Shown here: piece by piece, positions 8,938 to 61,897 of the stretch
Layout of the letters: every line of letters starts with the position of its first letter
Numbering within the stretch: position 1 is the first letter of the stretch
Assembly: GCA_964491125.1 (NCBI GenBank)
Contig: CAZBFJ010000002.1
Span: 1 to 62,029 of the forward strand
Length of the DNA: 62,029 nt
Reading direction: 5' to 3'
DNA from: an uncultured Myxococcales bacterium
Lineage (GTDB): Bacteria; Myxococcota_A; Polyangia; Fen-1088
The notes under the pieces: model-generated
Told to the model about the DNA's origin: nothing
The model's database searches: none
The model's input: only the letters and a program-made list of their open reading frames with translations
Made by a program: the position numbers and the translations under genes

Positions 8938-9003
8938 GCTGAAGTCCGTTACGCACAGCGGCTGGTACGGAGTTTGATTGCACAACAAGAGCAGGAGGTC
9001 ACC

Positions 9004-9531: not shown

Positions 9532-9959
9532 GCGAGCTCGACGCGAACGACCGGGCGGCGGTCATCGAGAAAGAGATCCAGGCGATCCGCGGAAACCTGG
9601 ACGGTCTGGTGAGGGAACTCGACCATCGCCGGCATCAGCTCCATCCCCTGCGAGCGTTTCGCAACCATCCGCTCGCGTTCGTCATCGCGGGCGTCGTGGT
9701 CGCGGCCGCGGTGACCGCCGGCGTTTCGATCGGGCGCGCCCGACGACGGGAGCAGAGCTCCTGGCGAGCACGGGGAAAGCGCCTGGGGTCGGCACTGGGC
9801 CGATGGGTCGAGAGACGGCCGGCGGAGGTGATTGTCCAGAAGCCGGGCCTTGGCACCAAGGTGCTCGGGGCGGCGGCCAGCGCGACCGCCGCCATGGTGG
9901 CTCGCCGCTTGGCCGCGAAGCTCCTCGAACCGCGCCAGGCTCGCGTTTCCGGGCAGTGA
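9528..9959 (+). CDS. DUF3618-like membrane protein
   Basis: The GTG start overlaps the upstream stop (GTGA). An N-terminal helical IEKEIQAIRGNLDGLVRELDHR segment is followed by a TM helix. Confidence 0.55.
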   Translation: MSELDANDRAAVIEKEIQAIRGNLDGLVRELDHRRHQLHPLRAFRNHPLAFVIAGVVVAAAVTAGVSIGRARRREQSSWRARGKRLGSALGRWVERRPAEVIVQKPGLGTKVLGAAASATAAMVARRLAAKLLEPRQARVSGQ

Positions 9960-11839: not shown

Positions 11840-12046
11840 CGCTACTGATTGAGATTCGCCTTCGAGAGGCGGGCGATAAGCCGGGGCGGGGGCAAGGAGG
11901 GCCGAGAACCGGACCGGAATGTACTGCCGTACTTGAGGACCGGAAGCGCAGGCCCGACGCCGCCCCCGACCCGGATCATCGCCCGTCGGTGATTCGAAGA
12001 ATTGAACCAGTAGTGCTAGCCCCGAGAGCCGCGCCATTCCGTGCGG

Positions 12047-12331
12047 TCAGGAGCGGGAACGACTCTTGCGCGCGCGGGTCGTGTCCTTCTCCTCCGTCGT
12101 GGCCCGCGCGCGGAGCGCCTTGCCCACGCGACCCTTCCCGCCGACCTTCACGCCGTCCTGGCGCGCCTTGGACAACCCGATGGCGATGGCTTGCCTGCGC
12201 GACTTCGCCGAGCCCTGTCCGCGTTTCAGCTTTCGGACCTGCTCGCGGACGAAGGGCCCGGCCTGGGTGCTCGGGCGCTGGCCGCGGCGTTTACGGGAGC
12301 GCGATTGCCGCCTGGTGTTCTCCTTGGGCAT
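12047..12331 (-). CDS. Small highly basic protein, DUF6496-like
   Basis: 94 aa containing PSTQAGPFVREQV...AKSRRQAIAIGLSKARQDGVKV. A strong GGAGG lies upstream of the ATG at 12331. The rest of the 532-aa track ORF is antisense to the sigma54 activator gene. Confidence 0.65.
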   Translation of the reverse strand: MPKENTRRQSRSRKRRGQRPSTQAGPFVREQVRKLKRGQGSAKSRRQAIAIGLSKARQDGVKVGGKGRVGKALRARATTEEKDTTRARKSRSRS

Positions 12332-12374
12332 GGTTGAGCCTCCTTGGTTGTGGCCAATTTGGCGGTTTGGCCAA

Positions 12375-12390
12375 TGCAAGCCGCCTACCA
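12375..12390 (-). promoter_or_regulatory. Candidate sigma54 (-24/-12) promoter
   Basis: The minus strand reads TGGTAGGCGGCTTGCA. It lies ~45 nt upstream of the ATG of the small basic protein gene. Confidence 0.55.
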
Positions 12391-12496
12391 AGTGGACTGG
12401 GGCTCGCCGCGCGATTGCTTCGGCCTGGTTTCGCATCAGGACTTCGCCCGTGCTTGCCGCCGATCGACGTGCTACATCTTCGACTCGGTGGCGATC

Positions 12497-13948
12497 ATGA
12501 AGGTACTGGTCATCGACGATGAGGCGTCCTTGCGCTCCGCGATCGCGGAGGTCGTGCGCGACGCGGGCCACGAGGTCGTCGAAGCTGGCGATGAAGGCGG
12601 TGTGGCGCAAGAGCTCGTCGATCGCGGGGATTTCGATCTCGTGATCAGCGACGTGCGTATGCCGGGTCTCGACGGCATGGCCCTCTTCCGACGCGCTCGC
12701 ACGGTTGCCCCTTTCATGGACTTCATCCTCATGACGGCGTTTGGAGACGTCGCGCAGGCGGTGGCCGCACTCAAGGAAGGCGCCGCGGACTACCTCACCA
12801 AGCCCTTCGACGTGGACGAGCTTCTGCATCAGATCAGCCGCATCGAAAGCGCCCGCCTGATGCGCGCCGAGCTGACGCAGGCCCGGCAAGCCTTGGCCCA
12901 GCGCCCGCCACGCAACCGCTTGGTCGGCGAGTCGCCGCAGATGCTCAAGCTCCAGTCGCGCATCGAGATGGTGGCGCAGAGTGAAGCCGCCGCGCTGGTG
13001 CATGGCGAAAGTGGCACGGGCAAGGAGCTGGTCGCGCGGTTGTTGCACGATCGTGGCCCACGGGCCGCCGGGCCGTTCATCGCGGTCAACTGCGGCGCCT
13101 TCCCCGAGACGTTGATCGAGGCCGAGCTCTTCGGGTTCGAGCGCGGGGCCTTCACCGGCGCGGTCAAGCGCCGAGATGGACGCTTCAAGGCGGCCGATCG
13201 TGGCACCCTGTTTCTCGACGAGGTTGCCGAGCTGCCGCTCTCGGCCCAGGCCAAGCTCTTGCGTGTCCTCGAGGAGGGGACCTTCGAGCCCATCGGCACC
13301 AACACGACCGTCAAGGTCGACGTCAGGCTGATCTCGGCGACCCACCGTGACCTGCGCCAACGTACGGCGGCCGGGCTCTTCCGCGAGGATCTCTTCTACC
13401 GCATCAACGTGCTCGACCTGTCGTTGCCCCCCCTGCGCGAGCGGGAGGGCGATCTGCCGCTGCTCATCCAGTTCTTCCTCGACGGGTTCGGCAACGGCTC
13501 GGGCCGGCGCAGGGCGCCCAGACTGTCCCCGGACGCGTTCACCGCACTCACCGCGTACTCGTACCCGGGAAACGTCCGCGAGCTCGCGCACGCCATCGAG
13601 CACGCGGTGGTGCTGGCCGGCGGCGGCACCATCACGCTCGACCACCTACCGGGCCCCATCGCCGAGGCTGCGAACCTGAATCCGCGGGTCGAGCCGCAGG
13701 CCCCCGCCAGCAGCGTGTCGGCCGCGACGCCCACGCGGCTCGCCGATGCGGTGCGGGAGTTCGAGAAGGCGCACCTGCGACGGGTGCTGGCCGCGGCGGG
13801 CGGCAAGCGCGTGCGCGCCGCCGAGATGCTGGGTATCTCGCGCAAGACACTGTGGGAGCGACTGCGCGACTACGAGGTCGAGGAAGCGCAGAGCCGGGCG
13901 AGCGGGGGCGAAGGCGCCATGAACGGCGCCCCGACCTCCACCTCCTGA
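12497..13948 (+). CDS. Sigma54-dependent response regulator (NtrC-type enhancer-binding protein)
   Basis: Receiver domain (MKVLVIDDE..ISDVRMPGLDG..KP). AAA+ sigma54-interaction domain (GESGTGKE and the GAFTGA loop in ERGAFTGAV). C-terminal Fis-type HTH (RAAEMLGISRKTLWERL). Confidence 0.92.
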   Translation: MKVLVIDDEASLRSAIAEVVRDAGHEVVEAGDEGGVAQELVDRGDFDLVISDVRMPGLDGMALFRRARTVAPFMDFILMTAFGDVAQAVAALKEGAADYLTKPFDVDELLHQISRIESARLMRAELTQARQALAQRPPRNRLVGESPQMLKLQSRIEMVAQSEAAALVHGESGTGKELVARLLHDRGPRAAGPFIAVNCGAFPETLIEAELFGFERGAFTGAVKRRDGRFKAADRGTLFLDEVAELPLSAQAKLLRVLEEGTFEPIGTNTTVKVDVRLISATHRDLRQRTAAGLFREDLFYRINVLDLSLPPLREREGDLPLLIQFFLDGFGNGSGRRRAPRLSPDAFTALTAYSYPGNVRELAHAIEHAVVLAGGGTITLDHLPGPIAEAANLNPRVEPQAPASSVSAATPTRLADAVREFEKAHLRRVLAAAGGKRVRAAEMLGISRKTLWERLRDYEVEEAQSRASGGEGAMNGAPTSTS

Positions 13949-13968: not shown

Positions 13969-16473
13969 CTACGCACCAGCCTTGGCGGCGTCCACCAGCT
14001 CCAGCACGTCGCGACCCAGGCCTTGCTGGACATCGGGTAGCTCGCGCCAGGGGTCCTTGCGCCGGAGGCGCTCGGCGACGTTCAGGACCGAGTAGGGGGC
14101 GCCGGGGTCGAACGCGGCGAGCTCGTTCCACGCGAGGGGCACCGACACGGGGGCGCCAGGCCGGGAGCGGGGCGAGTAGGCTGCCACCGCGGTGGCACCG
14201 CGCGCGTTGCGCAGGTGATCGACGTAGATCCTGCCCGCGCGCTTGGCCTTGGTGGCGACGGCCAGGTAGCGCCTGGGGCTGTCCGCGGCCATGGCTTGCG
14301 CCACCGCCTTGCAGAAGGCTCGTGCCGGCTGCCAGCCGAAGCGCGCGCCGTCGCGCCGCAGGGGCACCACTACGTGGAGTCCCTTGCCGCCCGTGCTCTT
14401 GACGAAGCTTTCGAGGCCGAGGCGGCGCATCCGCTCGCGCACCTCCTGGGCGGCCTCCACGACCGCGGGCCACGCGACGTCGGGAGCGGGATCGAGATCG
14501 AAGACCAGGCGGTCGGGCGCCTCGGGCTCGTCGGCGAGCGCGCCCCAGACGTGTACCTCGAGGACGCCGAGCTGGGCCAGACCCACCAAGCCGGCGGCGT
14601 CACGGAGGAAGAAGTGCTGGGCCGTCTTGCCGTCGGCGCGGATGGACACGGGCACGAGCCCCGGAACGCGGTCGCGCTGGAGGTGTTTTTGGTAGAAGCA
14701 GCTCCGGTGTTGTCCGTCGGGGCAACGGACCAGCGTCAACGGACGGTTCGCGACGTGCGGGAGCATGGCGGACGCGACCTTCCGGTAGTAGTCCGCGAGT
14801 TGACCCTTGGTGATGCCCACGTCGGGATAGAGCACCCGCTCGGGGTGGGTGATGGCGGGCGCGTCGGCCACCGACTCGACGGGCTGGGCCGGCTCGGGCC
14901 TGACCTCCTTGGCCGGCTTGTCCTCGCGCAGGCCGTGGAACACCGCCTGGCGGACCTTGCCGTCGTCGGTGAAGCCGGCGAACGCGATCTCCGCGACCAG
15001 CGTCGGCTCGAGCCAGCGCACGCCGCGGGCCGCAACGCCACGGGGTGGGTCGGCGAACGGCGGATCCTTTCGCTCGAGGGGCGCCAGCTTGCGTTCGAGC
15101 TCGCGCAGCGAGGCCTCCGAGAAGCCCGTCCCCACCTTGCCCGCGTAGCGCAGCTCGCCCTTTCGGTAGACCCCGAGCAGGAGGGCCCCGAGGTGTTGCC
15201 GAGAGCCGCGCGGGGCGCTGAAGCCGCCGACCACGAGCTCTTGCCGAGCCGCGCACTTGGCCTTGAGCCAGGCGTCGCCCCGGCCGGCGCGGTAGGTGGC
15301 GTCCCGCCGCTTCGACACGAGCCCCTCGAGCCCGAGCTGGCAAGCCTGTGCGTGGGCGGCGGGCCCGTTGCCGACGAGGTGGTCGGAGTAGCGGATCGCG
15401 GCGGAGGCTCGCACGGCGAGCAGCTCGCGCAGAAGCTCCTTGCGCCGGTCCAGCCGGCAGCCCCGCAGATCCCAGCCGTCGAGGTACAGGAGGTCGAAGA
15501 CGAAGTACGCGAGCTCGGCGGCGCGCGTGTCCTCGGCGAGGGCATTCTGCAGCGCCTGGAAGCTGCTGTGGCCGCGTTCGTCGAGGGCCACCATCTCGCC
15601 GTCGAGGACGGCCTGGCCAAGCCGAGCCTTGGCGAGAGCGCGCGCCAGGGTGGCGAAGCGTGCCGTCCAGTCGAGTCCGTTGCGCGTGAAAAGCTCGACC
15701 TTGTCCCCTTCGACGTGCGCCAGGATGCGGTACCCGTCGAGCTTGATCTCGTGGAACCAGGAGTCCCCGTCGGGAACCTTGAGGGTCGGCCGGGCGAGCT
15801 GACAGGGCAGCGCCGCGTCTGGAAAGGAAGCGCGCCGGGCGCCTGCGATGGTGGCGAGATCGGGCGGCGCATCCTTGGCCCGCGGATTGGCGGGCGTGCC
15901 GCGATCGGCCTGGCGAGCGATCGCCGGCATGGTTCGTCCCGAGACCACGCTCGCGTCCTCCTGGGTGATGTCGCGTGTGGTGCTCGCCTCGTCGTCGCTA
16001 CCCTTGAAGAGGAGCCACGACGGCTTGTCGCCGCCGGCCTTGCCTGTCCCCTTCGTGCGCACGAGGTGCCAGGAGCCTCGCAGGCGCTTGCCCTCGAGGC
16101 GAAACTTGAGGACCCCGTTGCGGTAGCTCTCGCGTGCATCCCCCTCGGGGATCCAGCGTCCCTGGTCCCAGATCATCACCGTGCCGCCGCCATACTCACC
16201 CTGCGGGATGGTGCCCTCGAACCCCCCGTATTCGACCGGGTGGTCCTCGGTCTGTACCGCGAGGCGTTTGACCTTGGGATCGAGGCTCGGGCCCTTGGGG
16301 ACGGCCCAGCTGAGGAGCACGCCATCGAGCTGGAGGCGGAAGTCGTAGTGCAAGCGCCGCGCGGCGTGTTTCTGCACCACGAAGGAGAAGCCTTCGCCGG
16401 CGGCGAGGCGGCCGCGCGGCTCGCGCGTCTTCCCGAAGCTGCGCTTCTTCCGGTAGGTCGCCAGCGAGGGCAT
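13969..16473 (-). CDS. ligD: ATP-dependent DNA ligase D (phosphoesterase-ligase-polymerase)
   Basis: N-terminal PE domain (FVVQKHAARRLHYDFRLQLDG). Ligase KxDG motif (EIKLDGYRI). C-terminal primase-polymerase domain (LVRCPDG...). Confidence 0.95.
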   Translation of the reverse strand: MPSLATYRKKRSFGKTREPRGRLAAGEGFSFVVQKHAARRLHYDFRLQLDGVLLSWAVPKGPSLDPKVKRLAVQTEDHPVEYGGFEGTIPQGEYGGGTVMIWDQGRWIPEGDARESYRNGVLKFRLEGKRLRGSWHLVRTKGTGKAGGDKPSWLLFKGSDDEASTTRDITQEDASVVSGRTMPAIARQADRGTPANPRAKDAPPDLATIAGARRASFPDAALPCQLARPTLKVPDGDSWFHEIKLDGYRILAHVEGDKVELFTRNGLDWTARFATLARALAKARLGQAVLDGEMVALDERGHSSFQALQNALAEDTRAAELAYFVFDLLYLDGWDLRGCRLDRRKELLRELLAVRASAAIRYSDHLVGNGPAAHAQACQLGLEGLVSKRRDATYRAGRGDAWLKAKCAARQELVVGGFSAPRGSRQHLGALLLGVYRKGELRYAGKVGTGFSEASLRELERKLAPLERKDPPFADPPRGVAARGVRWLEPTLVAEIAFAGFTDDGKVRQAVFHGLREDKPAKEVRPEPAQPVESVADAPAITHPERVLYPDVGITKGQLADYYRKVASAMLPHVANRPLTLVRCPDGQHRSCFYQKHLQRDRVPGLVPVSIRADGKTAQHFFLRDAAGLVGLAQLGVLEVHVWGALADEPEAPDRLVFDLDPAPDVAWPAVVEAAQEVRERMRRLGLESFVKSTGGKGLHVVVPLRRDGARFGWQPARAFCKAVAQAMAADSPRRYLAVATKAKRAGRIYVDHLRNARGATAVAAYSPRSRPGAPVSVPLAWNELAAFDPGAPYSVLNVAERLRRKDPWRELPDVQQGLGRDVLELVDAAKAGA

Positions 16474-16482
16474 GCCGCAAGC

Positions 16483-17403
16483 CTAGGCGGTGCGCCGAAG
16501 GCGTCGCGACCGGCCGCGCGCCGAGCTCACGCGCCGGGTGCTGCGGGTCTCGGCGCGTGCGGGCGTCGCTGCCTCGGAGGCCCGCGGTGCCTCGTTCCGG
16601 CCCCCTCGCTTGCGGACCTCGACGCTTTGGCGCAATAGGGACATCAGATCGACGACGCCCTCGCGCTCGCGCCGCGGGGGCGGCGGCTCGCTGCCCTCGG
16701 TGACCGAATTGATCTGGCCCGCGGCCACCTTCTCCTCGATGAGCTTCATCAGGTCCTCGCGATAGGTGTCGTGGTACTTCTCGGGCGTCCAGGGTCCGCT
16801 CATGCCCTCGATGAGCTGCTCGGCCATCGCCTGCTCCTGCGGCGTGACCGCCGGGATGCGGCCGAGGTCGCCGACCGTCTCCTCCTTGGTCCGCAGCTCG
16901 TCCGAGAAGCGGAGCAGCTCGAGCACCAACCCGTCCGGTTCGGCGAGCAGCGCGGCGAGGTGTTGCCGCGAGTGCAGCACCAACGTGGCGATGCCGGCGC
17001 GCTCCGTGCGCTCGAGGGCCGCGCGCAAGACCTCATAGGCCTTGGCCCCCTGCTTCTTCGGCTTCACGAAGTAGGGGCGGTCGAAGTACGTGGGGGAGAT
17101 GTCTTTCCTCGGCACGAAATCCTGGATGTCGATGGTCTGCGTGGCTTCGACGTTGGCTTTCAGGAAGTCCGCAGGCGTCACGACCACGAACTCGCCTTTG
17201 GCGTGCTCGTGACCCTTGACGATGTTGTCGTAGGGCACGAGCTCTCCCGTCTTCTTGTTGATGCGCTGGTAGCCGACCGGCGACAAGTCCCGCTTGTCGA
17301 GCAGGGTGAAGGACAGCTCGCGCCGCTCCTCGCCCGGGTAGAGCTCCACCGGAATCTGCACGAGCCCGAAACTGATCCCGCCGTTCCATGTCGCGCGAGG
17401 CAT
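16483..17403 (-). CDS. ku: Ku DNA end-binding protein (NHEJ)
   Basis: The MPRATWNGGISFGLVQIPVELYPG start and the Ku core are present. It lies 9 nt upstream of ligD on the same strand. Confidence 0.95.
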   Translation of the reverse strand: MPRATWNGGISFGLVQIPVELYPGEERRELSFTLLDKRDLSPVGYQRINKKTGELVPYDNIVKGHEHAKGEFVVVTPADFLKANVEATQTIDIQDFVPRKDISPTYFDRPYFVKPKKQGAKAYEVLRAALERTERAGIATLVLHSRQHLAALLAEPDGLVLELLRFSDELRTKEETVGDLGRIPAVTPQEQAMAEQLIEGMSGPWTPEKYHDTYREDLMKLIEEKVAAGQINSVTEGSEPPPPRREREGVVDLMSLLRQSVEVRKRGGRNEAPRASEAATPARAETRSTRRVSSARGRSRRLRRTA

Positions 17404-54679: not shown

Positions 54680-56038
54680 TCACGCCCTCCCGGCCATGAG
54701 GCGCTTGACGACGGGCGAGAGCGCGAGCAAGCCGAGGCCGGCGGTGAACGTCGATACCACGAACATCAGGAAGAAGTCGGCCTGGCCGCCGAGCACCCGG
54801 AAGAAGTGCCCCTGCTCGACCTTCTCGACGGTCCCGGCCAGGAGACCGGCCGAGAGGTCGGCGACGAACATGGCGAGGAACCAGGCGCCCATCGCCAGCG
54901 AGGCGAAGCGCTTGGGCGCGAGCTTGGTGACCATGGACAGGCCGATGGGCGAGAGGCACAGCTCGCCGCAGGTGTGGAGCACGTAGGTCACGATGAGCCA
55001 CAGCGGGCTCACCCGGATACCTCCGTCGGAGAGGCGCGCCCCCACCACGAGCACGATGAAGCCCGACCCGAGGAGGAACAAGCCGAGCGCGAAGCGCACC
55101 GGGGTGCTCGGCGCCCAGCCCCGGGTCTCGAGCCGCGTCCACATCCACGCGAACACCGGCGCGAGCGTGATGACCGCGATCGGATTGACGGACTGGAAGT
55201 AGGGCGCGAGAAACACGATGCCGAGGAAGTCGCGGCGGGTGCGCTCCTCCGCGAAGAAGGTCATGGACGAGCCGGCCTGTTCGAAGGCCATCCAGAAGAA
55301 GATGTTGAAGAAGGCCAGGATGGCGATGGCGGCGAGGCCCTGCTTCTCGAGCGAGGTCAGCGGCTGCTTGATGGCGGGCTGGTCGGCCGCGAGGCGGCGG
55401 CTCGCCGGCAGGTCGCCGATCGAGCCGAGGAAGCGCCGCTTGAGGAGCAGGTAGACGATGAGGCCGAGCACCATGCCGAAGCCCGCGGCGGAGAACCCGA
55501 TGTGCCAGTTGTAGCGGTAGGCGAGCTTCGGGCAGACGATCTGGCCGATGGCCGCGCCGAGATTGATGCCCATGTAGAAAATCGTGAAGGCGGCGTCCCG
55601 GCGCCGGTCGCCCTCGCTGTAGAGCTGGCCGACCATGGTCGAGATGTTCGACTTGAAGAAGCCGGTGCCGACGATGATGAGCCCGAGGCCCAGGAAGAAG
55701 GTCGACTGCGCCGGGATGGCCAGGCAGAAATGCCCCGAGGCGATGACGATGCCGCCGATGATGATCGACCGGTGCGTGCCGAGGAAGCGATCGGCGAGGT
55801 AGCCGCCGAGGAGTGGCGTCAGGTAGACGAGGCCCTGGTACCAGCCGTAGAGGTGGCTCGCCTGCTCCTTGCTCCAACCGAAGCCGCCGGTGGTGCTGAT
55901 GAGGAACAGGGTGAGGAAGGCCCGCATCCCGTAGTACGAGAAGCGCTCCCACATCTCGACGCCGAACAGCAGGAACAAGCCAGGCGGCTGCCGGGCCGGA
56001 TTGACCGAGGCTGGGGCGGTCGCGGGCTCGCGCTGCAT
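54680..56038 (-). CDS. Proton-dependent oligopeptide transporter (POT/PTR2 family)
   Basis: FGVEMWERFSYYGMRAFLTLFL and GGYLADRFLG are the PTR2 signatures. Confidence 0.9.
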   Translation of the reverse strand: MQREPATAPASVNPARQPPGLFLLFGVEMWERFSYYGMRAFLTLFLISTTGGFGWSKEQASHLYGWYQGLVYLTPLLGGYLADRFLGTHRSIIIGGIVIASGHFCLAIPAQSTFFLGLGLIIVGTGFFKSNISTMVGQLYSEGDRRRDAAFTIFYMGINLGAAIGQIVCPKLAYRYNWHIGFSAAGFGMVLGLIVYLLLKRRFLGSIGDLPASRRLAADQPAIKQPLTSLEKQGLAAIAILAFFNIFFWMAFEQAGSSMTFFAEERTRRDFLGIVFLAPYFQSVNPIAVITLAPVFAWMWTRLETRGWAPSTPVRFALGLFLLGSGFIVLVVGARLSDGGIRVSPLWLIVTYVLHTCGELCLSPIGLSMVTKLAPKRFASLAMGAWFLAMFVADLSAGLLAGTVEKVEQGHFFRVLGGQADFFLMFVVSTFTAGLGLLALSPVVKRLMAGRA

Positions 56039-56137
56039 CCCCGCGACGATTCAACGCCGAAGGGCGTTTTGCAATGCGCTTTTTCGTCCCCGCCACCCGC
56101 CCCCGCAGAAGCCGAGCGCCGCTCTGCTGCAACCAAT

Positions 56138-56297
56138 CTAAGGCACCCCGAAGAGCGCGCGGGAGAAGAGGCCCGTGCCGAGGCTCGCCGCGTTCGCCAG
56201 GAGCGCCCACGCCCAGGCGCGGCGACGGCGAAACAGCACGGCGAAGTAGGCGCTCTCCACGGCGACCGCGAAGATCTCGGCCACCACCGTGAGCCAC
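56138..56297. repeat. 160-bp direct repeat, copy A (partner 61568-61727)
   Basis: Base-by-base comparison gives 159/160 identity in the same orientation. The single C/T difference is at 56147/61577. Confidence 0.95.
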
Positions 56298-56347
56298 GCT
56301 CGTTTGGCCCCAAGGGCAAAAGTGATGATGGCTGCGCCGTCGGTCAT
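56138..56347 (-). pseudogene. Displaced 3' fragment of the small membrane-protein gene (copy of 61568-61727) fused to unrelated 5' sequence
   Basis: The last 52 codons plus stop match the intact gene at 61568-61897 at 159/160 nt. The first 17 codons (MTDGAAIITFALGAKRA) are unrelated. No RBS is visible. Confidence 0.6.
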
Positions 56348-56468
56348 GGCTCGTACGAGCTATGAACCGGGACACGAGCTCCGCGTCTAGTGATTTTGTG
56401 ACGCCGCGGCCCGGGGCGCGTCTCCCTGCGCGAGCGCGACCTGGCCCGCGATGAGGTGCGGCCACGGC

Positions 56469-56557
56469 AGGTCAGTTCAGCAAGTCCCCATCCTCACCAG
56501 CAGAGTGCGTGGGCGGAGGGCGCGCCGGGCGTGCGGGACGGAGCTTGGGCGGCTCGG
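56469..56557. repeat. 89-bp direct repeat, copy A (partner 61479-61567)
   Basis: 88/89 identity in the same orientation (T/C difference at 56506/61516). Confidence 0.95.
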
Positions 56558-56586
56558 TGGGCAGGCCCATGGCCGACAGAATTCTC

Positions 56587-56677
56587 TTGCCCAGCCCCGG
56601 TCAGCCTCCCCCTGGTTCCCTCCCATCCTCCCATCCTCCCTGTTCATCCCGTCACGCAAGGCGCGCGCTCACCGCGT
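56587..56677 (-). repeat. Purine-rich E element, copy 1 (purine strand is minus)
   Basis: The minus strand reads TGACGGGATGAACAGGGAGGATGGGAGGATGGGAGGG...GAGGCTGACCGGGGCTGGGCAA. It is co-linear with copy 4, including a 7-codon dehydrogenase gene tail. Confidence 0.85.
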
Positions 56678-56727
56678 TCAGGCCGGCGCTATTGCGGCAG
56701 CTCTGGTTCTCGGGCAACGTGGCCGCC

Positions 56728-58269
56728 ATGGGGCGATGCAAGGACGGCTCCCCGTCTTCCGGTCTCGACCGCCGTGCGTTTCTCGGCCTGACGGCAACGG
56801 GGGCCGCGGGCCTGGCGCTGCCGGGGTGCGGTGGGCTGGGACCGGCCGCGCCGGCCGCGCCACCCAATGTTCTCTTCGTGCTTCCCGACCAGCTGCGCGC
56901 GAACGTGTGCGGCGTCTACGGCGGACGGAACATCACCACGCCGAACATCGACCGCCTGGCGACGGAGGGCGTGGTGTTCACCAATTCGGTGTCGACCACT
57001 CCGCTATGTACGCCCTACCGCGGGATGCTGCAGACTGGGCGCTACCCCACCCATTCCGGGATCATCATCAACTTCGTCGAGGCCAGTCCGGCGCAGAACC
57101 CCCACTGCCTGGCGGACGTGTTCGGTGCCGCCGGCTACGCGACGGGATACATCGGCAAGTGGCATCTGGCCGCCGGCGTGAACAAGGACGCCCGCTTCGG
57201 CGGCGGCCACGCGCGTTGTACCGAGCCCGTCGATCCCGAGTACGACTTCGTCGCTCCCGGGCCGCGACGACTGGGCTACCAGCACTGGCAGGCCTACAAC
57301 TTCCACTACAAGTACCACGACTACTGGTACTACGAGGACGAGCCGGAGAAGCGCTACTCCGATCGGTACGAAACCGATACCGAGACCGACCAGGCCATGG
57401 CCTTCATGGAGCGGTGCCGGCAGTCCGGGCGTCCGTTCTTCGTGACCGTCGCTCCGCACCCTCCGCATCCACCCTTCGCCCCCGCGTACGCCCCGGCGGG
57501 CTATCTGGAACGCACGCCGCCGACGCCATGGTGGCCGCCCAACGTTCCCGCCGACTATCCCCGCACCGACGAAGAGCTGCGCTGCTACCTGGCCATGATC
57601 CAGAACGTGGACGACAACCTCGGCCGGCTGCTCGACTATCTGGACGCGTCGGGCTTGGCCAGAAACACCATCGTGGTCTTCACGTCCGATCATGGCGAGA
57701 TGCTCGGCAGCCAGGGACGCATCCAGAAGATGGTGCCCTACGCCGAGTCCATCGACGTTCCGCTGGTCATGCGCTGGCCCAGGCGAATCACGCCGGGCGC
57801 CCGGGTCGACGCCCTGCAGACCCCCATCGACCACTTCCCCACGCTGTGCGGACTGGCGGGCTTGCCGGTTCCGAGCGAGGTCGACGGCGTGGACCTGAGC
57901 GACATCGTGACCGGCCGGCATCCTGGCGAGCGCGAGGAAGTACTGCTCGCACACTACAGCTCCGGCGAGCTGTCGTTCGCGACCGGCACCACCTGGCCCG
58001 AGTGGCGCGGCGTCCGGACCAAGCAGCACACCTACGTGCGTTGGCTCACCGGAGCGGAGGAGCTCTACGACAACCTGGCGGATCCGTACCAGATGACGAA
58101 CCTGGCCGGAAATGGCGCCGAGCCGGAAACGCTGCTGCGCCTGCGCGGCCGCCTCGCGGATTTGCTCTCGGCCGCGCACGACGACTTCCGGCCGGGCACG
58201 GATTACAGCGACTGGTACGACGATTGTCGCAACCTGCTCCGCACCGCGCTCGGGCCGGTGCCCGGTTGA
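56728..58269 (+). CDS. Cys-type sulfatase, Tat-signal lipoprotein
   Basis: Twin-arginine signal DRRAFLGL with lipobox LPGC. Sulfatase N-terminus VLFVLPDQLRA and the FGly motif LCTPYRG (CxPxR). Confidence 0.9.
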   Translation: MGRCKDGSPSSGLDRRAFLGLTATGAAGLALPGCGGLGPAAPAAPPNVLFVLPDQLRANVCGVYGGRNITTPNIDRLATEGVVFTNSVSTTPLCTPYRGMLQTGRYPTHSGIIINFVEASPAQNPHCLADVFGAAGYATGYIGKWHLAAGVNKDARFGGGHARCTEPVDPEYDFVAPGPRRLGYQHWQAYNFHYKYHDYWYYEDEPEKRYSDRYETDTETDQAMAFMERCRQSGRPFFVTVAPHPPHPPFAPAYAPAGYLERTPPTPWWPPNVPADYPRTDEELRCYLAMIQNVDDNLGRLLDYLDASGLARNTIVVFTSDHGEMLGSQGRIQKMVPYAESIDVPLVMRWPRRITPGARVDALQTPIDHFPTLCGLAGLPVPSEVDGVDLSDIVTGRHPGEREEVLLAHYSSGELSFATGTTWPEWRGVRTKQHTYVRWLTGAEELYDNLADPYQMTNLAGNGAEPETLLRLRGRLADLLSAAHDDFRPGTDYSDWYDDCRNLLRTALGPVPG

Positions 58270-58286
58270 CGGGCCGGAGGCGCCAG

Positions 58287-58341
58287 CCCTTTCAAGGTGT
58301 CGAAGGCCACGAGGGATGGAAGAACAGGGAGAAACGGAGGG
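58287..58341 (+). repeat. Purine-rich E element, copy 2 (purine strand is plus)
   Basis: CCCTTTCAAGG...GGATGGAAGAACAGGGAGAAACGGAGGG lies immediately 5' of GTGCGAC. It is inverted relative to copy 3. Confidence 0.7.
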
Positions 58342-59520
58342 TGCGACCAGGCAAGAAGTGCCCACCGAGGCGGGTCGCGCAGCAAGGGACGACCGGAGCG
58401 GCGACCGAAGAAGGCGAGACGTCGGAGGGCCGAATAGTAGCGGTGACGACGGGGAACGACCGGCAATCGGACCCGGCTGAGCGAAGGCGGCCCGTGTCGA
58501 GATGAGCCTCAGGAGGGAACCATGGGCAACGCGAAGACGTTGCAGGACGTGTTACCGAAACTAATGAGGGTAGCGGAGAGAGCGAAACGGGAACCCGAAG
58601 CCCGGATACTCTCGCTCGCGCACCTGGTGGACGTGGACCTGATGAAGGAGGCGTACCGGCGCATCCGCAAGGGAGCGGCGGTGGGCGTCGACGGCGTGAC
58701 CAAGGAGCAGTACGGGAGGCAGCTCGAGGACAACCTCCGGCGGCTGCACACGCGGATGCGGGAGGGGCGATACCGCCACCAGCCGATCCGTCGGGTGCAT
58801 ATCCCGAAGGCACCCGGGAAGACGCGGCCGATCGGGATCTCGACCATCGAGGACAAAGTCGTGCAGAACGCGCTGACGATGGTGCTGGAGATACTGTACG
58901 AGCCGGTCTTCCTGGACTGCTCGTACGGCTTCCGGCCCGGGAGGAGCGCGCACGATGCGCTGCGGACCGTGAACGCGGCGTGCATGCGGGGCGAGGTGAG
59001 CTGGGTGCTGGAGGCGGACATCGAGTCCTTCTTCGACAGCATCGACCGCAAGAAGCTGATGGAGAAGCTCCGGCAGCGGGTGAACGACGAGGACTTCGCA
59101 CGCCTCGTCGGCAAGTGCCTCCACGTGGGAGTGCTCGACGGCGCGGAATACACCGAGCCGGACGTGGGAACGGCACAAGGGTCGGCGCTGTCGCCGATGC
59201 TCGGCAACATCTACCTGCACCACGTGCTCGACGTGTGGCTCGACCGACAGGTGCGGCCGCAGCTACGAGGCAAAACCTGCCTCGTGCGTTACGCGGACGA
59301 CCTGGTCATCGGCTTCGAACGACGCGAAGACGCCGAGATGGTGATGGCGATGTTGCACGCGCGGATGGCAGCGTGCGGTCTGCGTCTGCACCCGGAGAAG
59401 ACCCGGCTCGTGCCCTTCGACCGGCCGGCACCACGGCAGGACGGAGGCAAGGGACCGGGGACCTTCGACTTTCTGGGCTTCACGCTGTTGTGGCGGAAGA
59501 CCCGGAACGGACCCTGGGCT
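58341..59520 (+). mobile_element. Group II intron remnant (5' GUGCG end, shortened 5' RNA part, RT ORF lacking the thumb/X domain and domains V-VI)
   Basis: GTGCGAC at 58341 matches the group II 5' consensus GUGYG. Only ~180 nt precede the RT ATG. RT homology ends near 59520. Confidence 0.6.
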
Positions 59521-59715
59521 ACCCGACAAGGGAGGGATCCAGGGGAGAGCAGGCTGCTATCCCCCTCTCCCTCCGTCCTCTGTTCCCTCCCTTCCTCCCT
59601 GTTCATCCTCCGGCTCCGCCTGACCGCTCAGGACCTTGAAAGGGGTGGCCGGGGCCCTATCGCGCCGTTTGGTCAGCGCGCTACCCCGGCGGCGCTGCCT
59701 GCCCCTCCGTCTTGA
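58522..59715 (+). CDS. Group II intron-type reverse transcriptase, C-terminally truncated (likely non-functional)
   Basis: RT0-RT7 motifs are present: GAAVGVDGVT, IPKAPGKTRPIGISTIEDKVVQ, YGFRPGRSAHDAL, EADIESFFDSI, GTAQGSALSPMLGNIYL, RYADDLVIGF, LHPEKT and FDFLGFT. After ..WRKTRNGPW the frame runs into repeat E3 and the antisense of the anSME 3' end. Confidence 0.75.
   Translation: MGNAKTLQDVLPKLMRVAERAKREPEARILSLAHLVDVDLMKEAYRRIRKGAAVGVDGVTKEQYGRQLEDNLRRLHTRMREGRYRHQPIRRVHIPKAPGKTRPIGISTIEDKVVQNALTMVLEILYEPVFLDCSYGFRPGRSAHDALRTVNAACMRGEVSWVLEADIESFFDSIDRKKLMEKLRQRVNDEDFARLVGKCLHVGVLDGAEYTEPDVGTAQGSALSPMLGNIYLHHVLDVWLDRQVRPQLRGKTCLVRYADDLVIGFERREDAEMVMAMLHARMAACGLRLHPEKTRLVPFDRPAPRQDGGKGPGTFDFLGFTLLWRKTRNGPWATRQGRDPGESRLLSPSPSVLCSLPSSLFILRLRLTAQDLERGGRGPIAPFGQRATPAALPAPPS
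59561..59645 (-). repeat. Purine-rich E element, copy 3 (purine strand is minus)
   Basis: The minus strand reads CCCCTTTCAAGG...GGATGAACAGGGAGGAAGGGAGGGAACAGAGGACGGAGGGAGAGGGGG. Confidence 0.8.
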
Positions 59716-60805
59716 GCTCCTCGGCCAGGCGCTCGAGGCGCGGAAGCGCGTGGGCGTAGAAGGCCTTCCAGCCCTCGCACAGGACGCTGCCCGCTCGGCC
59801 GTCGCCGCCGGCGCGGCGAAACTTCGGGCAGTCGCCGTGACAAAGCGGCAGCCACGGACAGGAACGGCACTCGTCGTCCCAGGCCGCCTTGCGCAGCCCG
59901 AACCGCCGATAGAGCGGCGAGGCGAGGAGCTCCTTCCAGCTCCCACGCCCGATGTCGCCAAGCCGCCACTCGTCGCGGACGAAGAAGTCGCAGGGGTAGA
60001 TGCCGCCGTCGTGCTCGACGACGAAGTACTGGCGACAGTCCGTTCCCATGGTGCAAGCATTGCGCCTGCCCGTGACCAGGTACTCGAGAAGGGAATCGAA
60101 CAGGCGGATCGACACCCGACGCACGTCGCCGGCCACCCACTGATCGAAGATCTCGCAGAGGAAGCGCCCCCATGCCGCTCCGGACACCGAATACGGCAGA
60201 AGCTGCCCGCGGTCGTCGAATTCCACGCAGGGGACGTATTGCTGGTGGAACAGGCCGTGGTTCTTGAAGTAGCCGTAGATCTGCCGCGGCTGCTTGACCG
60301 TCCGGTCGTTCACCAGCGCGAGAACGTTGACGTCGACGCCGCGCCTGCGCAGCCGGTCGATGCCCTTCCGCACCAGCGCGTGGGTCGGTTGGCCGGCGGT
60401 GGTCTTGCGATAATGGTCGTGCACCTGGGCTGGCCCGTCGAGGCTGACCCCGCAAAGGAACTTGTATTCGGCGAAGAAGGCCGCGAGCTCGTCCGTGATC
60501 AAGGTGCCGTTGGTCTGGAAGCCGTTGCACACGACAGCGCCCGGCGGGGCGTGGCGCCGCTCGAGCTCGACCGCCTTCTCGAAGAACGGCAGGCCCATCA
60601 AGCCGGGCTCGCCGCCCTGCCAGCTGAAGGTGTAGGCCACCGTCTGGCGGGACCCCATGTAGCTGGCGATCACCCGCTCCAGGGTTTCGTAGGTCATCCG
60701 TGGATGCGCCGAGGTCGACGCCCGCCGGCCCAGATAGAAGCAGTAGGCACAGCGCAGATTGCAGTCCGCCGCCGAGGGTTTGATGAGCAGAGAGAAGTCA
60801 CTCAT
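59681..60805 (-). CDS. Radical SAM / SPASM anaerobic sulfatase-maturating enzyme (anSME)
   Basis: The CNLRCAYCF radical SAM cluster motif and C-terminal SPASM cysteines (CRSCPWLPLCHGDCP). It is convergent with the sulfatase gene. Confidence 0.88.
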   Translation of the reverse strand: MSDFSLLIKPSAADCNLRCAYCFYLGRRASTSAHPRMTYETLERVIASYMGSRQTVAYTFSWQGGEPGLMGLPFFEKAVELERRHAPPGAVVCNGFQTNGTLITDELAAFFAEYKFLCGVSLDGPAQVHDHYRKTTAGQPTHALVRKGIDRLRRRGVDVNVLALVNDRTVKQPRQIYGYFKNHGLFHQQYVPCVEFDDRGQLLPYSVSGAAWGRFLCEIFDQWVAGDVRRVSIRLFDSLLEYLVTGRRNACTMGTDCRQYFVVEHDGGIYPCDFFVRDEWRLGDIGRGSWKELLASPLYRRFGLRKAAWDDECRSCPWLPLCHGDCPKFRRAGGDGRAGSVLCEGWKAFYAHALPRLERLAEELKTEGQAAPPG

Positions 60806-60837
60806 GAAGCGGCCCCCGCGGCGATCTGAGCATTGTG

Positions 60838-60937
60838 TTGGCCAGCCCCGGCCAGCCTCTGCCCTCGCTTCCTCGCTTCCTCCCCTCCTCCCCTTCCTCC
60901 CTGTTCATCCCGTCACGCAAGGCGTGCGATCACCGCG
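60838..60937 (-). repeat. Purine-rich E element, copy 4 (purine strand is minus)
   Basis: The minus strand reads TGACGGGATGAACAGGGAGGAAGGGGAGGAGGGGAGGAAGCGAGGAAGCGAGGG...GAGGCTGGCCGGGGCTGGCCAA. It ends ~30 nt before the anSME ATG. Confidence 0.85.
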
Positions 60938-61314
60938 TCCGCGAATTCGAGCGTGCGCAGCGAGCCACCGAGATCGCGCGTCTTCTCCCCCTCCCGGAGC
61001 GCGCGATCATAGCCGGCCCGGATGCGCCCGGCGGCGGCGCGACAGGCCTCGTCCTTGCGGGACTCGGCCAGGTAGTTGAGCATCATCACGGCGCTCATGA
61101 GCAACGCCAGCGGATTGGCCAGGCCCTGCCCCGCGATGTCCGGCGCCGAGCCGTGCACCGCCTCGAACACCGCGCCTGCCTCGCCGATGTTGGCGCCCGG
61201 CGACACCCCGAGACCGCCGACCAGGCCCGCGCAGAGGTCCGAAACAATGTCGCCGTAGAGATTCTCGCAAAGCAAGATGTGGCCATAGTCATTTCGAAGT
61301 GGTTTTGTGCGCAT
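60913..61314 (-). pseudogene. 3' fragment of an isocitrate/isopropylmalate dehydrogenase-family gene
   Basis: Only the C-terminal ~125 aa are present (ENLYGDIVSDLCAGLVGGLGVSPGANIG...FEAVHGSAPDIAGQGLANPLALLMSAVMML). The N-terminal two thirds are absent, and the 5' junction (~61262-61310) is unusually AT-rich. Confidence 0.8.
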
Positions 61315-61478
61315 CGGAGAACCTTGGTGGAACGCGGCATCAGGGCATCAGGACCACGGCCGCATGCACGGAGGGCGCAGGCCGGGGTTTTCTCGGGGGT
61401 TCTCGGGTCTGACGAAGGTCTGACGAGGGTGTCTGGAACACTCTCGGCAGTCTACCCCCATCCCGCCTGGTCAACGCG

Positions 61479-61567
61479 AGGTCAGTTCAGCAAGTCCCCA
61501 TCCTCACCAGCAGAGCGCGTGGGCGGAGGGCGCGCCGGGCGTGCGGGACGGAGCTTGGGCGGCTCGG
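61479..61567. repeat. 89-bp direct repeat, copy B
   Basis: See the partner at 56469-56557. This copy directly abuts the 160-bp repeat. Confidence 0.95.
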
Positions 61568-61727
61568 CTAAGGCACTCCGAAGAGCGCGCGGGAGAAGAG
61601 GCCCGTGCCGAGGCTCGCCGCGTTCGCCAGGAGCGCCCACGCCCAGGCGCGGCGACGGCGAAACAGCACGGCGAAGTAGGCGCTCTCCACGGCGACCGCG
61701 AAGATCTCGGCCACCACCGTGAGCCAC
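61568..61727. repeat. 160-bp direct repeat, copy B
   Basis: See the partner at 56138-56297. This copy forms the 3' end of the intact ORF 61568-61897. Confidence 0.95.
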
Positions 61728-61897
61728 CCGTGGGAGAGCGGCAGCAACGGGAAGAGCACGAACCAGACGATGGGGTGCGTGAGGGCGCTGGCCCCGAAGG
61801 CGGCCGGGATGGTGGCGCGCAGCCCGACCGCGTAGATGGGCACCTCCACCAGCTGGGTGAAGACGAAGGCCGCGAGCCAGGCCTCGAGGTAGTCCAT
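61568..61897 (-). CDS. Small hydrophobic membrane protein (unknown function)
   Basis: 109 codons with three to four hydrophobic helices. Its 3' third is duplicated at 56138-56297. Confidence 0.6.
   Translation of the reverse strand: MDYLEAWLAAFVFTQLVEVPIYAVGLRATIPAAFGASALTHPIVWFVLFPLLPLSHGWLTVVAEIFAVAVESAYFAVLFRRRRAWAWALLANAASLGTGLFSRALFGVP

Follow-up and report, generated by a model that had tools for sequence, protein, structure and literature searches.

A 5.4-kb insertion of apparently rearranged chromosomal DNA behind a membrane-protein gene, with duplication of the gene's 3' end, in an uncultured Myxococcales bacterium

Introduction

In Escherichia coli, e14 (and phage 21) is inserted in icd such that the gene is kept intact and a truncated C-terminal copy, icdC, lies at the far end, and the direct repeats at this locus can recombine, deleting the insert (PMC13626634). 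Cis-mobilizable elements (CIMEs) are decayed remnants of ICEs or IMEs that carry attL and attR and have lost their genes for integration and transfer (PMC5704250). DNA is furthermore inserted at chromosome breaks: end joining inserts endogenous DNA, in pieces of 30 bp to 18.8 kb, at break sites in Streptomyces (PMC5869714), and capture of heterologous DNA at a break has been shown in Sinorhizobium (PMC6379672).

We analysed a stretch of 62,029 nucleotides from an uncultured Myxococcales bacterium (the window), in which the 3' end of a gene for a small membrane protein is found on both sides of a 5.4-kb block. An earlier note on this DNA had read the block as an element that integrated into the gene's 3' end and brought a replacement 3' end with it. 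With loci of the e14/icd type the window shares direct repeats of a 3' end with a reconstituted gene, and an unoccupied site in relatives. Neither a recombinase gene in the element (Pfam and NCBIfam searches of all cargo ORFs and 33 other ORFs of the window) nor a recurrence of the element or of a fixed att core at this target among 80 genome loci, nor an attP on a phage or plasmid, was found.

Results

The repeat that brackets the block, D1, spans positions 56138–56297 (D1-A) and 61568–61727 (D1-B), both on the minus strand, in direct orientation and with 159/160 identical nucleotides, and no further copy of it exists anywhere in the 62-kb window. The sole mismatch (56147 C vs 61577 T) reads GGG vs GGA in gene orientation and is synonymous, because both codons specify Gly. 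Identity ends at the TAG stop codon on one side and at 56297/8 on the other, and the sequence flanking the two copies is unrelated from the first base on both sides. D1-B comprises the final 52 codons and the TAG of an intact gene for a 109-aa membrane protein (61568–61897, minus strand), which has no Pfam or NCBIfam model and belongs to a conserved Myxococcota family (287 matches, 23 invariant residues); the gene's native upstream neighbour, with the C-terminus WLLAASFSLLFLFARRRR, is cut off by the contig end. D1-A, the displaced last 52 codons and stop, is part of a 69-aa fusion ORF (56138–56347, minus strand), in which 17 unrelated codons precede it across junction J4 (56297/56298) and which occurs in the protein collection only on this contig. 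A native spacer of 99 nt (56039–56137, minus strand) separates the stop codon of D1-A from a POT-family peptide transporter gene (54680–56038, minus strand; PF00854 3e-59, TIGR00924 7e-110), the native downstream neighbour of the membrane gene. The recomputed alignment agrees with the earlier note on the 160-bp direct duplication with its one synonymous difference, on its sharp limits, on copy B as the natural 3' end of an intact 109-codon ORF, and on the fusion of copy A to unrelated sequence 99 nt upstream of the POT gene.

An empty site, which the same note had proposed to look for in relatives, was found: in five contigs of close relatives (L002–L006) the membrane gene is directly followed by the POT gene, and the alignment is unbroken across the insertion point. 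In L002, the two genes are separated by 52 nt, the POT protein is 98% identical to that of the window at the amino acid level, and the contig aligns continuously with window positions 56296→54235 (94.8%) and separately with 61908→61568 (89.7%); D1-A is colinear with the spacer and the POT gene as in the empty site. Within the spacer, as aligned between the window, L089, L002, L004 and L006, conservation with the empty-site relative covers the 52 nt nearest to POT, and the 47 nt by the stop codon are lineage-specific. This shows that the ancestral order was membrane gene, short spacer and POT gene, and confirms the 5.4-kb block as a true insertion between two neighbouring genes, where 5,270 nt now sit exactly after the membrane gene's TAG and are followed by the second copy of the gene's last 160 nt.

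Among the loci of 80 related genomes no duplicated gene end was present, and in JGI metagenome contigs, scanned for the exact pattern of the gene end, there were 0 matches. Synteny around the membrane gene in 80 species-level genomes, judged from crude gene calls that were missing for many loci, is conserved on neither side, so that there is no hot-spot signal at that distance. Short ORFs holding only the C-terminal half of the membrane family, taken from a 50%-cluster library, were considered as marks of recurrent att-type insertions: P0381 (L094/L095), the only one with its context retrieved, some others being on contigs too short, stems not from an insertion but from a 1.9-kb deletion that fuses an upstream operon gene to the family's last 40 codons.

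Pfam and NCBIfam confirmed the cargo listed in the earlier note, that is, a sulfatase, a radical-SAM maturase, a retroelement remnant and a dehydrogenase fragment. The second, 89-bp repeat described there is real as well; its copies D2-A (56469–56557) and D2-B (61479–61567), both on the plus strand, are direct repeats identical at 88/89 positions, are spaced by 5010 nt and are nested within the D1 pair. Between D1-A and D2-A lies a filler of 171 nt (56298–56468) that matched nothing else in the window, none of 95 compared loci and no part of L091, the source-like contig described below. D2-A is followed by D4-A (56578–56677, minus strand), which consists of the last 8 codons of Iso_dh and a purine-rich repeat and is 81% identical to D4-B (60829–60938, minus strand), the 3' end of the Iso_dh fragment with the purine-rich intergenic repeat upstream of the maturase. 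The sulfatase gene (56728–58269, plus strand; PF00884 8e-60) encodes a Cys-type enzyme with the active-site motif CTPYR and, as read in translation, a twin-arginine (Tat)/lipobox leader.

Further inward lies an internal fragment of a group II intron (58306–59608, plus strand), bracketed by an inverted pair of the purine-rich repeat (58306–58346 / 59563–59608). Its RT ORF (58522–59575) matches positions 3–277 of the 353 of TIGR04416 with only 175 nt upstream of the ORF, the maturase end and the ribozyme domains are missing, and no Rfam group II match was obtained at E<=1; the fragment, about 66% identical to plasmid ltrA genes at the nucleotide level, was the only part of the block matched in plasmid and phage databases. 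To judge from these limits, the piece is a remnant. The anaerobic sulfatase maturase gene (radical SAM/SPASM; 59681–60805, minus strand; TIGR03942 4e-116, 388 bits) is intact. Of Iso_dh, a 3' fragment of about 120 codons (60913–61275, minus strand; PF00180 positions 234–348 of 348), contained in an ORF at 60913–61314 (minus strand), is cut at junction J2 (61275/61276), where a permuted segment (61276–61387, minus strand) adjoins it. A 91-nt piece (61388–61478), for which no match was found, leads from there to D2-B, which abuts the membrane gene's stop codon at junction J1 (61567/61568). D1 (159/160) and D2 (88/89) are equally young, and D4 (81%) is old.

The nearest source sequence found, contig L091 of a relative, carries an intact Iso_dh gene (341 aa), an anaerobic sulfatase maturase gene and a sulfatase gene, located among nuo genes, rsmB and PEPCK. 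L091 9541–11138 corresponds to window 61274→59671 (89%), with the Iso_dh fragment aligning to 9541–9904, and L091 11154–12848 corresponds to window 58284→56605 (92%). The maturase of the cargo is 91% identical in amino acid sequence to that of L091, where the maturase and sulfatase genes are only ~15 nt apart and the intron fragment is absent. The permuted segment provides a third block, L091 13752–13856 being homologous to window 61387→61276 (82–83%, E 1e-24 to 1e-25; 82% over this block), and lies ~0.9 kb beyond the sulfatase in L091, yet on the opposite side of the other two blocks in the window, from which a circular permutation relative to L091 follows. Read from the membrane gene, the cargo runs as D2, 91 nt, the far-side intergenic segment, a jump to the middle of Iso_dh, maturase, intron remnant, sulfatase, D2 and the 171-nt filler, and it carries host genes truncated at internal junctions. 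Judged by sequence comparison, the cargo looks like a rearranged, circularly permuted copy of a chromosomal accessory locus, of the own or a related strain, to which L091 is only ~90% identical. The D4 pair also brackets the maturase-sulfatase module in L091 (9882–9959 / 12781–12850), which rules it out as a product of this insertion; on the strength of this match, D4 is inherited from the source locus.

At J1, which joins the stop codon to D2 and whose two parent sequences are both in the window, 0 nt are shared, and at J2, which joins the intergenic segment to mid-Iso_dh, at most 3 nt, judged against the ~90%-identical proxy L091; microhomology is readable at only these two of the four novel junctions. 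Since four novel junctions are needed, the insertion event was complex. The same contig encodes the bacterial end-joining machinery, LigD and Ku (13969–17403, minus strand): LigD (13969–16473) has phosphoesterase, ligase and primase-polymerase domains (PF21686 6e-90, PF13298, PF01068, PF04679), and Ku (16483–17403) matches PF02735 at 4e-42.

The earlier note had recognised no integrase or recombinase inside the block, and Pfam and NCBIfam indeed detected no integrase, recombinase or transposase among 40 ORFs scanned across the 62-kb window. Neither terminal inverted repeats nor any inverted repeat linking the insert's two ends were seen, the region holds no Rfam RNA, and promoters and terminators scanned for in it did not exceed the expectation from shuffled sequence. 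A mobile element carrying its own machinery was therefore rejected, as no integrase, transposase, terminal inverted repeats or Rfam RNA had been found. A transposon or IS, including composite and MITE-like forms, was rejected as well, there being no transposase and no end-linking inverted repeat and the duplication measuring 160 nt rather than being short. An integron gene cassette was discarded on account of the missing integrase and of the boundary CTAAGGC (complementary strand, read by eye), which is without the GTT triplet of GTTRRRY.

Composition, which the earlier note had proposed to compare with the flanks, deviates in one respect only. GC and GC3 are inside the window's gene range (GC3 of 0.83–0.89 for cargo genes, 0.80–0.96 for all window genes), whereas the tetranucleotide correlation of the insert is 0.958 vs a minimum of 0.966 for 5.3-kb background windows, a mild outlier that plausibly reflects the high content of non-coding, repeat and RT sequence. 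A foreign island is thus unsupported by composition.

A sibling strain, 99% identical, carries a different cargo of 1.9 kb at the same nucleotide, with a duplication of 320 bp (L001/L089). This cargo, a patchwork too, comprises a piece of murG at its edge, a gene for a ParE toxin, a likely antitoxin ORF without a family match and a 228-aa ORF, and no integrase or other recombinase was found in it. L089, a SPAdes contig from another sample, runs from the cargo through a 320-nt gene copy and the spacer to POT, and D1-A is 100% identical to L001 2063–2222. The left breakpoint, right after TAG, is identical to the nucleotide in the window and in L001/L089, and the sequence right of this junction is unrelated in all three contexts compared. 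In favour of site-specific integration, both insertions begin at one and the same position behind the stop codon. Identical stretches of 30 nt stand at the two ends of L001, which corresponds to a path in the assembly graph that is circular (or tandem) and consists of the cargo and the gene fragment.

These data bear on whether the membrane gene's 3' end is an integration hot spot served in trans, i.e. an attachment site for a recombinase encoded elsewhere, where both cargos would be integrase-less, att-flanked decayed islands (CIME-like) or cassettes of cargo and a 3' gene fragment, which would insert exactly behind the stop codon and could excise as circles. Two different cargos at one site in strains 99% identical, both starting at the identical nucleotide and both with repeats ending at the stop codon, would suit such a site, as would the circular or tandem path of L001, the ParE toxin gene and likely antitoxin ORF, which are typical of mobile cassettes, and an architecture that matches e14/icd/icdC (PMC13626634) and the CIME definition (PMC5704250). 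We nevertheless consider this unlikely. No integrase was found in the window or either cargo, the inner repeat boundaries differ (160 vs 320 nt), and no conserved core spans the crossover, as the sequence right of the junction is unrelated in the three contexts; furthermore, the cargo, with its truncated host genes, appears to have been copied in permuted order from a chromosomal locus, no second gene-end copy was found in the 80 related genomes, no viral contig encodes the family, and no plasmid or phage match was obtained.

The 1/160 difference is likewise unlike an imported 3' end, the gene segment differing by 13% from that of the nearest empty-site relative, so that duplication of resident sequence or gene conversion fits better. 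Of the original proposal of integration at a 3' end, then, the insertion, the empty site and the absent integrase stand, whereas the replacement 3' end is not supported: besides this divergence and the host-gene content of the cargo, the sibling strain has another cargo and another inner boundary (320 bp), no element with this gene end was found in 80 related genomes, viral contigs, plasmids or phages, and no viral contig encodes the membrane-protein family.

The different repeat lengths would be accounted for by a Campbell-type event, in which a non-replicating circle entered the chromosomal gene by a RecA-dependent single crossover. An earlier illegitimate joining would have produced this circle, with 160 nt of the membrane gene on it, or 320 nt in the case of the sibling: repeat length would equal the fragment on the circle, the repeats would be near-perfectly identical, as they are, and both the circular path of L001 and the circular permutation of the cargo would fit. 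We regard this as improbable, because the junction of stop codon and cargo would still need an illegitimate origin, twice and at the same nucleotide, and the nested D2 repeat would be unexplained without a second event. Moreover, L001 is not independent evidence, as circles are an expected by-product of recombination between the repeats of an integrated block. More speculative, and in our judgement quite improbable, is that integrase-less cassettes dock at the nucleotide behind the stop codon, each consisting of cargo plus a 3' gene fragment as recombination site. They would move as circles, driven by a recombinase not yet recognised, an HUH-type nuclease or a similar enzyme whose gene lies elsewhere and which recognises the junction by its left side only. 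Two such cassettes would then be seen in the window and L001/L089, and an older one, at a different gene, in the 78-nt repeat of the Iso_dh end around the maturase-sulfatase module of L091.

We also asked whether the arrangement could be an assembly or phasing artefact, with real unique junctions and a wrong path through the 160-nt repeat, the chromosome having the empty site and the cargo belonging to a separate circle or to a co-existing strain. The window comprises an entire metagenome contig, whose end lies 302 nt beyond D1-B, and the Logan contigs of the source run, L088 and L090, are 100% identical but interrupted in or close to the repeats; the break in L088, 30 nt inside D1-A, implies that the sample contains this gene end in a second context as well. 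A 150-nt exact repeat cannot be phased in a short-read graph, and the phasing of the two D1 copies is putative. An artefact is nonetheless very improbable in our view, since J1, J2 and J4 are novel sequences that a repeat-induced misassembly cannot create, the independent L089 shows the integrated configuration for the sibling insertion, and C and T at the differing position each go with the downstream context that they have in the contig.

Discussion

Altogether, the block looks like an insertion made without an element's own recombinase and not like a self-mobile island. We give about an even chance to an origin in which copied chromosomal fragments were inserted illegitimately, in a recent, strain-specific and complex event that duplicated the target and proceeded by end joining or template switching. 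A circular or tandemly duplicated form of the locus, or two broken copies of it that overlapped, may have been the source, which would explain why D2 (89 nt) stands at both ends, 5,010 nt apart. The pieces would have been captured between chromosome ends broken at different positions, e.g. on sister chromosomes, one break lying directly behind the stop codon and the second in codon 57/58, and such staggered breaks would have duplicated the 160 nt between them. Ku/LigD end joining would be the most likely ligation route given the 0–3 nt of microhomology at the testable junctions; replicative template switching is an alternative route to the same product. Several observations count against this origin: a breakpoint shared by two independent insertions is not predicted by random breakage, the nearest source is only ~90% identical, the tetranucleotide profile of the insert is a mild outlier, four novel junctions are needed, and the circular path of L001 would also fit a cassette-like circle.

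As to consequences, the intact copy probably retains the function of the membrane gene, the POT gene its own upstream region, and the strain would gain a sulfatase-maturase pair, while the 99%-identical repeats would permit RecA-dependent gene conversion, loss or amplification of the block. If insertion of copied fragments at a break is the true origin, the window presents a clean natural case of a Ku/LigD bacterium patching its chromosome with copied chromosomal pieces, so far shown mainly for induced breaks in the laboratory. It also cautions against calling every repeat-bracketed, integrase-less block a decayed island. Only one feature, the breakpoint that recurs at the stop codon, could be a sign of a site-specific process not yet recognised.

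Among known systems, orphan modules of Rhs/CDI loci contain downstream, 5'-truncated gene copies whose retained length varies by strain and which lie next to variable cargo, and in this the window and its sibling appear alike. At Rhs/CDI loci, however, it is the C-terminal domain of the gene itself, together with an immunity gene, that varies, whereas in the window the repeat runs to the stop codon and the cargo consists of unrelated metabolic genes. Like e14 in icd, the block is inserted at the 3' end of a protein gene that is left intact, with a truncated C-terminal copy at the far end. Yet e14 encodes an integrase, and several positions distinguish its icd 3' end from icdC, whereas the window has no integrase, repeats identical at 159/160 positions, an apparently rearranged chromosomal cargo and a sibling with a different repeat length. 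Unlike in a CIME, the cargo holds no conjugation or mobilisation remnants, its only mobile-element trace being the internal group II intron fragment, and it matches a housekeeping-type chromosomal locus of a relative; furthermore, no cognate integrase-bearing element was found at the membrane gene in 80 genomes, and the inner boundaries of the repeats vary.

With capture of DNA by NHEJ, finally, the window has in common that Ku and LigD are encoded and that the size of the insert is within the 30 bp to 18.8 kb range of Streptomyces; the insert also looks like a patchwork of chromosomal fragments with truncated genes, and the two readable junctions, J2 through a proxy, suggest little or no microhomology. 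It differs in that the published cases concern laboratory-induced breaks, whereas this event is natural and has a 160-nt target duplication and a permuted donor, and, unlike in simple break capture, the same breakpoint recurs in a second strain.

Results and discussion

The outer repeat (56138-56297 and 61568-61727) is in direct orientation and matches at 159 of 160 positions. Its sole mismatch (56147 C vs 61577 T) is synonymous because it changes GGG to GGA in the orientation of the gene. The sequence outside the two copies is unrelated from the first flanking base on both sides, and no further copy lies elsewhere in the 62-kb window. The right copy is the 3' end, 52 codons and TAG, of an intact ORF of 109 codons (61568-61897, minus strand), and the left copy is joined to 17 unrelated codons, giving a 69-aa ORF, with a POT-family transporter gene beginning 99 nt downstream. 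The duplication, its gene-end nature and the fusion are thus as the earlier note had described them. Nested within this pair is a second repeat of 89 nt (56469-56557 and 61479-61567, 88/89 identical), whose right copy adjoins the stop codon of the membrane gene and whose left copy lies 171 nt away from the left outer repeat.

The 109-codon ORF encodes a small membrane protein from a well-conserved Myxococcota/Polyangiales family (287 database matches, 23 invariant residues), for which no Pfam or NCBIfam model matched. None of the 80 species-level genomes carrying the gene holds a second copy of its 3' end, no viral contigs encoding the family were found, and a scan of JGI metagenome contigs for the gene-end pattern was empty. 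Short ORFs holding only the C-terminal part of the family, taken from a 50%-cluster library, were considered as candidates for further insertions; the one with usable context proved to be a deletion fusion. This 99-aa ORF (P0381; L094 10001-10300, L095 1015-1314) takes its first ~58 codons from a gene lying ~1.9 kb upstream of the membrane gene in L006, L008, L009 and L012, and the remainder from the membrane gene's 3' end (last 40 codons). The conserved operon of L006 consists of a 135-aa gene, a 236-aa gene, a Thr-rich 253-aa gene and the membrane gene; L008, L009 and L012 likewise have its first gene ahead of the membrane gene.

In the closest relatives in public assemblies, the site is empty. 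Contig L002 has the membrane gene (89% aa identity), then 52 nt, the POT gene (98% aa) and the same prolyl oligopeptidase gene; its positions 192-2206 align uninterrupted with window 56296->54235 (94.8%), and 10-350 align with 61908->61568. Four further contigs (L003-L006) have the same gene order. Since these five show the empty site, the left repeat copy, spacer and POT gene represent the ancestral continuity, and 56298-61727 is therefore entirely extra. The insertion, together with the empty site that the earlier note had predicted, is thus confirmed. The same note had further envisaged an element bringing its own replacement 3' end, for which we found no evidence: the repeat copies differ at 1/160 positions, whereas the same segment diverges by 13% from the nearest empty-site relative. 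These divergences speak for duplication of the resident gene end, or for its homogenisation by conversion, and against import. As a separate observation, three lineages differ in the segment between the stop codon and a conserved element upstream of POT (GAAAAAGCGCATTGCAAAAC...GGCGTTGAATCG), where they have 47, 0 and ~37 nt that are unrelated in sequence (compared over window 56091-56137, L002 351-402 and L006 10331-10417); turnover immediately behind the stop codon has therefore been recurrent.

The gene content of the inserted block, hereafter the cargo, agrees with the earlier reading: a sulfatase (Tat/lipobox), a radical-SAM maturase (anaerobic sulfatase maturase), a retroelement remnant (group II intron RT fragment) and a dehydrogenase fragment (Iso_dh C-terminus). 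The nearest homologue of the maturase (91% aa) lies on the 99.8-kb contig L091 of a relative, in the order nuo genes, rsmB, intact 341-aa Iso_dh, maturase, convergent sulfatase, antitoxin-like ORF, nucleotidyltransferase-like stretch, HTH gene and PEPCK, where the antitoxin-like and nucleotidyltransferase-like assignments were read from translation and have no family match. Three blocks match the cargo at 82-92% nucleotide identity: L091 9541-11138 corresponds to window 61274->59671, 11154-12848 to 58284->56605, and 13752-13856 to 61387->61276. The third block lies ~0.9 kb past the sulfatase in L091 and on the opposite side of the cargo in the window, where it is joined at 61275/61276 to the middle of Iso_dh, creating the dehydrogenase fragment; the parent sequences, read in L091 as a ~90% identical proxy, have ≤3 nt in common at the join. 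The alignment thus shows a chromosomal locus copied into the cargo in circularly permuted order. One full turn of such a circle plus an 89-nt overlap would place the inner repeat copies at their spacing of 5,010 nt; the same structure would result if a piece were cut from a tandem duplication, or if two overlapping fragments were joined with their order swapped.

An older repeat within the cargo (56578-56677 and 60829-60938, 81% identical), consisting of the last 8 Iso_dh codons and a purine-rich repeat, was rejected as a product of the insertion event, as the same pair already brackets the maturase-sulfatase module in L091. There, the 2.9-kb module is flanked by a 78-nt direct repeat (9882-9959 and 12781-12850, 88-94% identical) that contains the same Iso_dh codons and purine-rich repeat, and so shows the same architecture, a gene-end duplication around an insert, at another gene. 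In other relatives, the module stands in a different context (L092) or is absent after Iso_dh, which is followed there by another gene (L093).

The purine-rich repeat (GGGATGAACAGGGAGGAAGGGAGG...) is, within the window, confined to the cargo (4 matches vs 0.12 expected; 56617-56649, 59563-59608, 60878-60910 and, inverted, 58306-58346); in L091, it occurs at 9912-9959, 12803-12850 and, inverted, ~12905-12950. It tends to form inverted, hairpin-like pairs, and one such pair encloses the RT piece (58347-59562), which has neither a maturase end nor any ribozyme domains and is absent from L091, where the convergent maturase and sulfatase genes are ~15 nt apart. This arrangement is reminiscent of introns that target hairpins or terminators.

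As the earlier note had observed, no integrase is recognisable: among the 40 ORFs scanned, which cover the window, there is no integrase, transposase or relaxase. The block ends carry no inverted repeats, no RNA family matched, and no phage or plasmid match was obtained apart from the RT (~66% identity to ltrA genes). In the comparison of composition proposed earlier, the GC3 of the cargo genes (0.83-0.89) falls within the range of the window's genes (0.80-0.96), and the tetranucleotide profile deviates only mildly as an outlier. The contig of the insertion also encodes a complete system for bacterial non-homologous end joining, with adjacent genes for Ku and a three-domain LigD (phosphoesterase, ligase, primase-polymerase) at 13969-17403 (minus strand). 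A 185-aa ORF (8974-9531, plus strand) matches Phage_holin_3_6 (PF07332, 5e-23), with no other phage genes nearby. Ordinary chromosomal genes lie elsewhere in the window (Cu/Zn SOD, Ser/Thr kinase, sigma-54 activator, glycogen debranching/alpha-amylase cluster, GroEL, HflX, SecA).

The most economical account, to which we assign an even chance, is that the insertion arose in one recent, complex illegitimate event. Several findings together lead to it: the inner repeat lies within the outer one and both are of equally recent origin; the donor sequence is permuted, with truncation of host genes at joints inside the block; a 171-nt filler has no traced source; the two junctions that could be judged are blunt or close to it (0 nt at 61567/61568, ≤3 nt at 61275/61276); no recombinase was found; and Ku/LigD is encoded. 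Two chromosome ends, for instance of sister chromosomes, would have broken at positions 160 nt from each other and captured pieces of the copied chromosomal locus between them, and such staggering would duplicate the stretch that separates the breaks. Replicative template switching could lead to the same product.

In a sibling strain, the locus is seen in a second state. There, two contigs assembled from other samples (L001 from Logan, 1-2222; L089 from an independent SPAdes assembly, 1-2005) carry the membrane gene at 99% nucleotide identity with a different, patchwork cargo of 1.9 kb, comprising an internal murG fragment, a gene for a ParE toxin, next to it a likely antitoxin ORF (no family match), and a 228-aa ORF. 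Next come 320 nt of the membrane gene, copied from codon 4 onwards, and then POT behind the same 99-nt spacer. L089 covers cargo, gene copy, spacer and POT, i.e. the integrated configuration; L001 represents a circular or tandem path, because its first and last 30 nt, the gene's end, are identical. The left junction falls at the same nucleotide as in the window, directly after TAG, and the sequences to its right differ from the first base (CAATCCC... vs CCGAGCC... in the cargos, ATTGGTT... in the native spacer).

Illegitimate joining leaves unexplained why the breakpoints of two independent insertions coincide to the nucleotide, and a site-specific reading therefore stays alive: integrase-less, att-flanked cassettes or CIME-like remnants (PMC5704250), served in trans, would account for the coincidence, yet we consider them unlikely. 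Slightly less likely still is a Campbell insertion, driven by homology, of a circle with a previously captured piece of the membrane gene; this would accommodate the variable repeat length but still requires the same coincident illegitimate junction. Two likenesses between the cargos were also seen. The 15-nt string GAAATGACTATGGCC is common to the sibling cargo (L001 1777-1791) and the permuted segment of the window cargo (61277-61291, minus strand; L091 13836-13850), 7 nt from the 61275/61276 join, with ~0.02 matches expected by chance on a rough estimate. Furthermore, the first ~77 nt past the stop codon, within the inner repeat (61491-61567, minus strand), align weakly with the start of the murG fragment (L001 36-113; ~66%, offset 5 nt), with a score of 22 vs 13 +/- 2.3 in 1000 shuffles, 0.3% of which reached it; the likeness may be fortuitous or may stem from a remote common origin of the two junctions.

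An error of assembly phasing is very improbable. The contig stops 302 nt past the right repeat copy, and short-read graphs of the source run SRR8925737 break at the repeats, as such an error would have it; the novel junctions themselves, however, cannot be assembly products, and L089, by analogy, supports the integrated form. Separately, a Logan contig of the source run (L088; 1-30 = window 56167-56138) breaks off 30 nt inside the left copy, although the C/T difference at 56147 should let a k=31 unitig extend to 56177. In that sample, the gene end with the G variant must consequently be followed by a second sequence context as well, owing to strain mixture, gene conversion or an array.

Altogether, the locus adds a new example to known kinds of genome plasticity, with the recurrent stop-codon breakpoint as its one unexplained feature. 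Bacterial end joining has been shown to insert DNA where chromosomes break: endogenous fragments between 30 bp and 18.8 kb long in Streptomyces (PMC5869714), heterologous DNA in Sinorhizobium (PMC6379672). At e14/icd, the replacement gene end is imported (PMC13626634); the near-identity of the outer repeats in the window argues against this for the present locus.
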